From contig OZ024742.1 in assembly GCA_964016885.1 (NCBI GenBank), positions 150,102,001 through 150,166,000 on the forward strand: a DNA stretch of 64,000 bases, written 5' to 3'. Positions 22,737-25,199 of the stretch are shown in pieces. Under the pieces are notes generated by a model. That model had not been told where the DNA came from. It made no database searches and worked only from the letters and a program-made list of their open reading frames with translations. The translations under genes were made by a program, and so were the position numbers. Source of the DNA: Eledone cirrhosa. Its lineage: Eukaryota. Position 1 is the stretch's first letter; every line of letters begins with the position of its first letter.

Positions 22737-22933
22737 TAGGAACAAGTAAGACCCCGACGGCTGAGCTCAAGCCGTTTCGACGGCTAATTCTGGACCCAGA
22801 ATTAGCCGTCGAAAAGGCTTGAGCTCAGCCGTCGGGGTCCTACTCGTTCCTATTACCCACTCTACTACCCTAAGTATTGAGTACTTTGGTGCGTTATGGT
22901 CCACCTGGTTCCTTACCACATTTCCTTCGTTAT
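22737..22933 (+). mobile_element. Short fold-back element carrying a hammerhead 3' half (family F)
   Basis: ~55-bp inverted arms plus ~80-bp tail, (TA)n on both sides; other copies at 23814-24008, 24572-24719, 51797-51984, 58286-58478. Confidence 0.85.
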
Positions 22934-23421
22934 ATATATATATATATATATATATATATATATATATACACACACACAGACACATATATATATATAATAT
23001 ATATACACACACACACACATATATATATATTTCTCCGCTCTCCCACTCACCCACAGTCACCCTCACTCTCTCTCCCTCTCAGACATACGTACACATTCCT
23101 TTTTCTTTCTCACTTCTTTCATTTGCGTTCACTATATCGCCTTATTCCACACAAACAAATGCATATAAATACTCATTCCTTCAATTCCCCCATTTATTCA
23201 TTGCTTCTGTATATATATATATATATATATATATATATATATATATATATATATATATATATAATATATATATATATGTAGAAGTTCTATTTAAATTGTT
23301 GGGATACAACAAGCAAATATTTTTATAACTGATATAAAGCACTCAACAAATTATTGGAGTAAAAATACGATATATTAACAAAGGGTATGTCAATATTTAT
23401 TTATAAAACTGATCTATATTA

Positions 23422-23486
23422 TATTTTATCTGATGAAAGCACACCATAATTTAACTTGGTGTCCTTGAAATATGTATAATGAAATA
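23422..23486 (+). ncRNA. Type I hammerhead ribozyme
   Basis: tattttat-CTGATGA-aag cacacca/tggtgtc ctt-GAAA-tatgta-TA-atgaaata. Confidence 0.75.
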
Positions 23487-23813
23487 AATATGGTTTTATA
23501 AATATTGTTTCCATTTGTTAATATATCGTATAATATATATATATATATATATATATATATATATATATATATATATATATATATATATTTTATAAATATA
23601 TATATATATTCATATATATATATATATATATATATATATATATATATATATATATATATATATATATATATATATATATATATTATATATATATATATAT
23701 ATATATATATATATTATAAATATATATATATATATTCATATATATATATATATATATATATATATATATATATATATATATATATATATATATATATATA
23801 TATATATATATAT

Positions 23814-24008
23814 GGGAACGAGTAGGACCCCGATGGCTGAGCTCAAGCCGTTTCGACGGCTAATTCTGAGTCCAGAATTAGCCGTCGAAACGGCTTGAGC
23901 TCAGCCGTCGGGGTCCTACTCGTTCCTATTACCCACTCTACTACCCTAAGTATTGAGTACTTTGGTGCGTTATGGTCCATCTGGTTCCTTACCACATTTC
24001 CTTCGTTA
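23814..24008 (+). mobile_element. Family F fold-back copy
   Basis: gtc-GAAA-cggct/agccg-TC-ggggtc at 23884-23915, mirrored to the left. Confidence 0.85.
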
Positions 24009-25199
24009 TATATATATATATATATATATATATATATATATATATATAGAGAGAGAGAGAGAGAGAGAGAGAGAGAGCAAACATCACGGGCGCTCTATCT
24101 CAAAGTTATTTTTGAAAAGCATTAGAAATGCTGCAACCGGTAAAAACTTAAAACTAAAACTGAATACTAACCAATACTTATTAATAATTTTTACTTATTC
24201 ACTGGGAAAAATTTGTCAGCATTTTCTTTTCCTTTTACTAATATATATATATATATATATATTTATATATATATGTATATATATATATATATATTTATAT
24301 ATATATGTATATATATACATATATATATATATATATATATATATATATATATATATATATATATATATATATATATATATATATATATATGTATATATAT
24401 ATGTATATATATACATATATACATATATATATATGCATATATATATATACATATATATATATATATATACATATATATACATATATATATACATATATAT
24501 ATATATATATATATGTATATATATATATATATATATATATATATATATATATATATATATATATATATATATAACAAAGAAAGTGTGGTATGGAACAAGG
24601 TGGACCATAACGTACTAGAGTACTCGATACTTAGGGTAGTAGAGTGGGTAATAGGAAAAGATCCGGGTCTAGCTGTCGAAACGGCCGGAGCTCAGCCGTC
24701 GGGGTCCTGACTCTTTTCATATATATATATGTATATATATATATATATATATATATATATATATATATATATATATATATATATATATATATATATATAT
24801 ACATGTATGTATGTATATATATATATATATTTAATATACAAATGGCTTCTACAGGACTAGAACTGTTTCATACTATGTATTGAGTGCGTTACTTACTGTG
24901 GTTACCCCCGAGTGAACCTAGGATAAACACACACACGCACACACACACACACACACACACACATACACACACACACACACACACACACACATACACACAC
25001 ACACACACACATATATATATACATATATATATACATACATATATATATATATATATATATATATATATATATATATATATATATATATATATATATATAT
25101 ATATATATATATATACATATATAAATATATGAGTTCCGGGTCCAATCGACGGTAACTGCACCAAGTAGGGTACTCAATACATTAGTAGAGTTTATACAC

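Follow-up and report, generated by a model that had tools for sequence, protein, structure and literature searches.

Fold-back stumps of a Hydra-clade Penelope-like retrotransposon carry half a hammerhead ribozyme and probably join two cDNAs head to head

Why do short insertions between TA microsatellites carry the 3′ half of a hammerhead ribozyme facing its own mirror image? The question is raised by a 64,000-nucleotide stretch (G000:C3:150102001-150166000, analysed whole and here called the window) of an animal genome of 3.0 Gb that is rich in microsatellites. The 3′-half motif GTCGAAACGGC (GTC-GAAA-CGGC..GCCG-TC-GGGG) matched the window nine times with at most one mismatch, against 0.14 matches expected by chance, and these matches fall in five insertions, each between (TA)n runs, as the earlier note had described. 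Four of the insertions are palindromes with arms of 51-62 nt, which bears out the mirror image reported for them, and the fifth, at 24572, is an inverted tail fused to the ribozyme 3′ half. The arms are listed in Table 1 with element positions numbered from the predicted ribozyme cleavage site, +1 being the first G after GTC; the tail-bearing arm, with its outer end at ~+97, is termed the T arm, and the short arm, with its outer end at ~+20, the S arm. The fifth insertion (copy 3) arose either by the joining of two cDNAs or by later loss of one arm via 3-nt microhomology. A non-LTR retrozyme identity (tandem monomers with a complete hammerhead) was considered and rejected for the window copies, which are instead single half-ribozyme stumps of a coding element.

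Table 1. Arms and predicted cleavage sites of the five insertions in the window
Insertion	Feature	Positions in window	Strand	Element positions and remarks
Copy 1, 22736-22931	S arm	22736..22795	-	+20 to -40, haplotype B; outer end runs into (TA)n at TTCC/TAT
Copy 1	T arm (L134)	22796..22931	+	-38 to ~+97, ribozyme 3′ half and tail, haplotype A
Copy 1	Predicted cleavage	between 22833 and 22834
Copy 2, 23812-24007	S arm	23812..23868	-	+20 to -37
Copy 2	T arm	23869..24007	+	begins exactly at initiator-like A(-41), extends to tail end
Copy 2	Predicted cleavage	between 23909 and 23910
Copy 3, 24572-24719	T arm (subfamily F3)	24572..24661	-	tail only; ends ~+12, before ribozyme; hand-counted position
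Copy 3	S arm	24664..24719	+	~-37 to +18
Copy 4, 51797-51982	T arm (F3)	51797..51930	-	turn inside 6-nt palindrome at ~-32 to -35
Copy 4	S arm (F3)	51931..51982	+
Copy 5, 58286-58478	T arm (F3)	58286..58424	-	reaches ~-38
Copy 5	S arm (F3)	58423..58478	+	from ~-35; overlaps T arm by 2 nt

All five are short stumps of a retrotransposon, here designated family F, which targets (TA)n and belongs to the Hydra clade of C-terminal EN+ Penelope-like elements. Longer family F copies have RT and GIY-YIG sequences located upstream, and tandem arrays of 3.54-kb units carry intact ORFs of 717-719 aa (RT/GIY-YIG). Read by eye, the ORF contains RLRWRT and SDKTG (DKT replacing DKG), a CxCx5C linker (CNCPDRSIC), and CxxC (CNLC-SEE) and CxH (LLNK..CKH) motifs flanking conserved E and N, and no CCHH motif was seen in it by eye. 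Pfam generated a weak GIY-YIG match on one ORF fragment (E 0.069) and no GIY-YIG match on the full ORF, the RT/GIY-YIG assignment being that of the motifs read by eye. The Hydra-clade motif list in the available text of PMC8557442 comprises RWK-like, DKT, CxCx5C, CxxC and CxH motifs and no CCHH; family F has RWR where the clade has RWK. Its insertions show the Hydra traits of a (TA)n target, partial tandems, an inverted 5′ arm and a one-sided tail. Judged from these motifs and traits, family F is a member of the Hydra clade; Neptune, the first assignment, was dropped once the ORF had been compared with the clade motif list. The families described by Craig et al. (2021, PMC8557442) likewise have a single RT-GIY-YIG ORF, a (TA)n target, a hammerhead, an inverted 5′-truncated arm and a tail at one end, but are generally < 3 kb, with tails of 30-40, whereas family F has a 3.54-kb unit, a tail of ~77 nt, a U3-A8 ribozyme core, a long extended stem II, and sampled copies that are mostly 140-200-bp stumps with a fixed fold zone.

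Since L368-L374 hold near-identical tandem arrays of the complete element with intact ORFs, family F is probably still active. In L292, L310 and L311 (G000:C1:27009400-27010200) lie three 257-bp units, each of which extends from -44 as far as the first codons of the ORF. The junction is identical in all three, and this mini tandem, which lacks the 5′ ribozyme half, possibly had a small circular RNA as template. In L001, L013, L016, L008 and L017, family F arms run straight into sequence from a different ribozyme-bearing family, suggesting events with mixed templates.

The half of the ribozyme missing from the window copies was found in longer copies (3,267 matches), where it consists of CCCC, a TTGANAA core and then a long stem II, the core lying ~87 nt upstream of the cleavage site. 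This is a U3-A8 variant: the core is mostly TTGANAA, and of 57 read-through arms, 45 have U-A at positions 3 and 8 and 10 have an unpaired C-A there. U3-A8 cores have been reported in the ribozymes of Penelope-like elements (PMC4209133). The canonical CTGANGA stands 6-34 nt upstream of 31 of the 45,524 exact 3′-half motifs of the genome, and none of the 30 cases inspected had a proper 5′ half, all being junction accidents or chimeras with other families. Thus the 5′ half postulated in the earlier note exists, but not in the cccc-CTGANGA-gac form. In intact copies, stem II pairs CGGCTA (~-76 to -71) with TAGCCG around a loop at ~-45 to -52, and the hammerhead fold was 0-1.5 kcal/mol from the minimum in all four copies folded. 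The conserved core with its 3-8 pair, GAAA, UH and the three stems of a type I hammerhead are present, stem conservation being partly built in by a regular expression that demanded stems. No hammerhead model appeared among the 150 of 168 matches listed for an Rfam scan of the window. T arms end at +2..-6 in 7 of 73 cases against ~2 expected (p ~0.006), a weak hint of cleaved RNA and hence of the predicted self-cleavage, which microhomology could mimic.

Other ribozyme-like sequences also lie in the window, namely hammerheads of a family H at 6603, 23430 and 50102, the last beginning exactly at an initiator-like A 64 nt above its core; a two-armed tandem array of a 310-bp unit at 11561-17128 with a hammerhead core in each unit; and another complete hammerhead-like motif, of a different family, at 20447 (-). 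Copies of a family E occupy ~24840-24870, 25120-25290 and 32980-33070, one of them a fold-back. tRNA matches over the Rfam gathering score were located at 21655-21726 (-), 45165-45235 (+) and 45425-45495 (+).

Genome-wide, 15,412 fold-backs with a gap of 6-36 nt were found, against none with reversed-pattern controls. The positions at which the arms end were determined in two samples, one anchored in the distal tail (93 insertions of 16,062 exact matches, first 35 Mb of contig 1) and one anchored at the cleavage site (92 insertions, partly overlapping the first); the breakpoints were sampled from young exact-match copies within 56 Mb at the start of a single contig, with about a dozen loci common to the two F2 samples. 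In the distal-tail sample, the rate at which T arms stop was 0.003-0.012 per nt from +97 to -33 and 0.068 per nt at -34..-46, where 51 of the 58 T arms at risk stopped; six of the other seven read beyond the core. The same zone stopped 50 of 53 S arms at risk, and in the cleavage-site sample 68 of 81 T arms and 50 of 52 S arms, the S-arm counts leaving out rows whose inverted arm started outside +10..+21. This zone occupies the 3′ strand of the distal part of stem II as far as the loop. Inner ends are spread over its 13 nt; in the distal-tail sample about a third of the T arms at risk (17/58) reach -42..-45, past A(-41), some of them inflated by microhomology or by the choice of reference. In subfamily F3, to which three window copies belong, arms end at ~-40/-41 at TTAGTT, and none of 30 copies (of 1,532 matches, chosen to reach -40) reads into the 5′ core. 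The distal stem differs between F1, F2 and F3, and the stop distance is equal.

Palindromic shape and TA flanks are also features of a fixed palindromic MITE or fold-back DNA element, and could arise as a long-read assembly artefact. However, the junctions vary between copies, and, contrary to a MITE, their sequence forms the terminal repeat of an element that encodes RT, and the outer ends are two different positions of that retroelement. In short-read contigs from other runs, TA loose ends occur at both +20 and +100, and two opposite-strand joints, -40/+54 and -45/+1, are present, the best holder among these contigs being perhaps from the same sample; as the joints also occur in independent short-read contigs, they are no long-read artefact. 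A MITE or an artefact can therefore practically be dismissed, and the insertions are retrotransposition products, as the earlier note had it.

That note further supposed that the nascent cDNA snaps back on the stem II complement and primes its own second strand, the ribozyme structure dictating the inversion point. A self-priming origin was put forward earlier for palindromic junctions of Penelope elements (PMC3846280), and the breakpoints are indeed strongly non-random and within the stem II region. They are, however, off the natural hairpin: the fold is centred on the distal stem, on its 3′ strand, and the pairings ctaattctg/cagaattag and ctagatc/gatctag that had been taken for the natural stem II hairpin are created by the inversion. 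Self-priming on the natural complement predicts products in which stem II keeps its 5′ strand and its natural loop, but only 13 of 92 T arms pass -46.

Two other ribozyme-bearing families served as controls. In family E (58 of 14,801 matches sampled), 35 of 58 arms end at -36..-46, with a peak at -44/-45 around an initiator-like A at -45, 30 nt below TATAAATA; the core starts at -39 with stem II further 3′, and the fold zone is wholly upstream of stem II. In family H2, where two rows come from duplicated regions, 7 of 18 arms end at -58..-64 from the core, by an initiator-like A(-64), 33 nt below a TATA-like box at -97; five read further and six stop earlier. Families E and H2 thus fold at their own putative TATA/initiator-like sites, upstream of stem II, so that a promoter is separable from ribozyme structure as the determinant of the fold. 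The claim that ribozyme structure sets the inversion point fails on these families, and snap-back on stem II, which has the arm asymmetry in both directions described below also against it, is very improbable and already largely refuted. Family G, with copies at ~25600-25760 (-) of the window and in L008, L183, L337 and L386, was left out of the control counts; in a few cases its fold-back axis lies 50-75 nt above the core, and no clear TATA box accompanies it. These axes lie at or near AAAATGGCG, which we take to resemble the YY1 site that fixes the L1 start.

In family F, the stop zone holds an initiator-like TTAGT/TCAGT whose A is at -41, and a TATA-like box stands 29-31 nt upstream of it. 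The TATA and initiator labels are our assumption from consensus matches, the family F box (TATTTAAA, TATTTATT, TATTCAAA) being non-canonical and in AT-rich DNA. Copies that run from the tail through the 5′ UTR to the ATG bear the same fold-back, at -38, -45 and -20, and each of the repeated units in L292 restarts at -44. Among 30 ORF-side-linked copies (of 397 matches, counted by hand, four from one array), 5 end before the ribozyme, 8 at -20..-45 and 17 past -46. Passage beyond -46 is thus seen in 17 of the 25 that clear the cleavage site, compared with 13 of 92 tail-ended arms (p < 1e-4 in Fisher tests on near-equivalent counts), a contrast confounded by tandem arrays and enzyme processivity. 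The base added before A(-41) is G in 25 cases and A in 6, or 16 and 6 (p=0.052) without the cases explainable by the partner; arms ending at -40 mostly have C before the end (22 of 37 free cases), rather than G. An extra G has been described as a trace of copying a cap (PMC9341517). In the one RNA run, covered as assembled contigs, which cannot reveal a start, the fraction of words present was 0.06, and a single contig lay outside the ribozyme region. From the sequence signals, a family F transcription start at ~-41 is likely.

The same zone could instead mark a barrier, with two cDNAs primed as in our preferred reading (below) and stalling at a structural or protein-bound block at the entry of loop II, not at the end of the RNA. 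The zone does match the distal stem II hairpin, covering its 3′ strand as far as the loop, the ends are widely spread, and the A/T-run additions at a U-run resemble stalling. On the other hand, E and H2 arms stop upstream of stem II, when the 3′ strand of every ribozyme stem has already been copied, the stop distance is the same in F1, F2 and F3 despite their different distal stems, and 17 of 25 ORF-side-linked copies get through the zone. Such a block is unlikely.

Whether a fold-back contains one cDNA or two was examined from the lengths, outer ends, junctions and haplotypes of the arms. In the distal-tail sample, the S arm is longer at 27 of 60 junctions, the T arm at 24, and 9 are ties, with overlaps counted against the claim; at the 63 junctions of the second sample, the S arm is longer in 19, the T arm in 27, and 17 are ties. 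In 7 of 93 insertions (L229, L234, L265, L276, L283, L303, L307), the S arm reaches -34 or beyond and the T arm ends inside the tail. Inverted short arms start at ~+20, running into TA, in 60 of 93 insertions; multi-unit arrays terminate at either +97 or +20, and long sense copies also at +20. In two predicted folds, a bulged hairpin follows +97 and a different, weak hairpin follows +20. Junctions are blunt, microhomologous or with insertions, A/T runs are added on both arms in L182, L186 and L216, and the tail is on both arms in L022 and L191.

As snap-back needs a T arm at least as long as the S arm, the longer S arm at 27 of 60 junctions argues against self-priming, and with the seven insertions whose T arm ends in the tail it speaks against the proposal that a nascent cDNA primes its own second strand on stem II. 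Later deletion within palindromes could create some of the S-longer cases. The observed junctions and arm lengths are those expected from two independently primed cDNAs, and argue for them. The two arms carry discordant haplotypes in 30 of 5,508 F2 fold-backs, some of which may reflect double mutation, against ~44-48% under random pairing; therefore, both arms come from one RNA or one source copy. Copy 1 of the window is one of only these 30 A/B-discordant fold-backs in the genome, and the idea that it prompted, of arms from two different RNAs, was rejected as a general rule given this rarity. Haplotype concordance fits double priming and snap-back equally well.

A single tail-primed cDNA that runs off the RNA and then folds back, its second strand joining the target via TAT microhomology at +20, would likewise account for the >99% concordance of the arms, for the junctions with the longer T arm (24/60 and 27/63) and for the fold-backs with a tail on both arms, and snap-back by R2 proteins after full-length cDNA synthesis has been documented (PMC11371274). 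Against it stand the longer S arms (27/60 and 19/63), the S arms present where the T arm never got to the ribozyme, and the long sense copies and arrays that terminate at +20. Run-off followed by snap-back is thus quite unlikely as the general route, and may be the source of a subset of the fold-backs.

The reading that we prefer, and regard as probable, is that two cDNAs are primed at +97 and +20 from both strands of the target, run off at the 5′ end of the RNA, and are joined head to head. What is observed in its favour is the parent ORF, the outer ends at +97 and +20, the shared stop zone, the varied junctions, the arms of one haplotype and the TATA-like box. Pol II would start at ~-41, perhaps also at -45, inside stem II of an upstream repeat, and the resulting RNA would open with only the 3′ half of the hammerhead, followed by the tail and then the ORF. 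The enzyme would nick both strands of (TA)n and begin reverse transcription from +97 on one and from +20 on the second; the template would usually be a single RNA or a pair of RNAs from one source copy. Priming at the 5′-proximal copies of +97 and +20 would give cDNAs of ~140 and ~60 nt, both terminating where the RNA begins, and end-joining would trim, anneal or extend both 3′ ends to form the palindrome.

In L1 twin priming, the second target strand primes a second cDNA; it inverts sequence without duplicating it, whereas in family F both cDNAs copy one segment. The minus-strand strong-stop DNA of LTR elements is a short cDNA that starts at a 5′-proximal primer site and runs off the capped end; unlike there, family F has no tRNA primer or integrase. 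It is possible, and we propose it only tentatively, that Penelope-like elements make a retrovirus-like strong-stop cDNA, with the cap site in the hammerhead and failed transfer giving fold-backs. In that case, the TATA box would double as the 5′ strand in stem II, with the initiator serving as its distal 3′ strand, and because the cap site would lie inside the hammerhead, the mRNA would be unable to remove its own cap by cleavage in cis. Pseudo-LTRs and tandems would arise when the cDNA is transferred to the 3′ repeat, and fold-backs when transfer fails on both strands.

Inverted 5′ arms, one-sided tails, palindromic junctions and starts inside the pseudo-LTR are already established for Penelope elements (PMC8557442, PMC3846280, PMC2377424), and opposite-strand ribozyme pairs were noted earlier (PMC4209133); a retrozyme preprint (bioRxiv 10.64898/2026.07.22.740005) served as background only. 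In vitro, PAc (Poseidon, Anolis) uses two internal RT starts that bound the tail and cuts and extends both strands of an AT-rich target with uncleaved RNA (Frangieh et al. 2024, PMC11167929). In its pair of internal starts and its extension of both strands, PAc agrees with the model for family F; it belongs to another clade, and the available text of that study does not address cDNA ends or the origin of inverted junctions. The Penelope elements of Adineta vaga have head-to-head inverted pLTRs with palindromic junctions, which were explained as self-priming, possibly on an antisense template (PMC3846280), whereas family F favours two sense-templated cDNAs. TATA and initiator-like motifs or a mapped start lie within the pLTR in A. 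vaga and D. virilis (PMC3846280, PMC2377424), though the D. virilis Penelope promoter differs in being TATA-less and internal (PMC2377424). The 5′ junctions of R2 insertions contain inverted sequence too, in many cases once a full-length cDNA has been made, but there the inverted part is the second strand of one cDNA (PMC11371274), whereas the inverted arm of family F starts at a fixed position and often exceeds the other arm in length. In a literature search that most subscription papers and supplements lay outside, no paper was found that ties the Penelope inversion point to the transcription start.

Motif searches that use the canonical CUGANGA core overlook the ribozyme of family F. With more than 15,000 junctions, this one family with intact ORFs provides a nucleotide-level record, which favours two cDNAs ending at the RNA start over hairpin self-priming. 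If the strong-stop reading is true, fold-back axes would map Penelope transcription starts from genome sequence alone.
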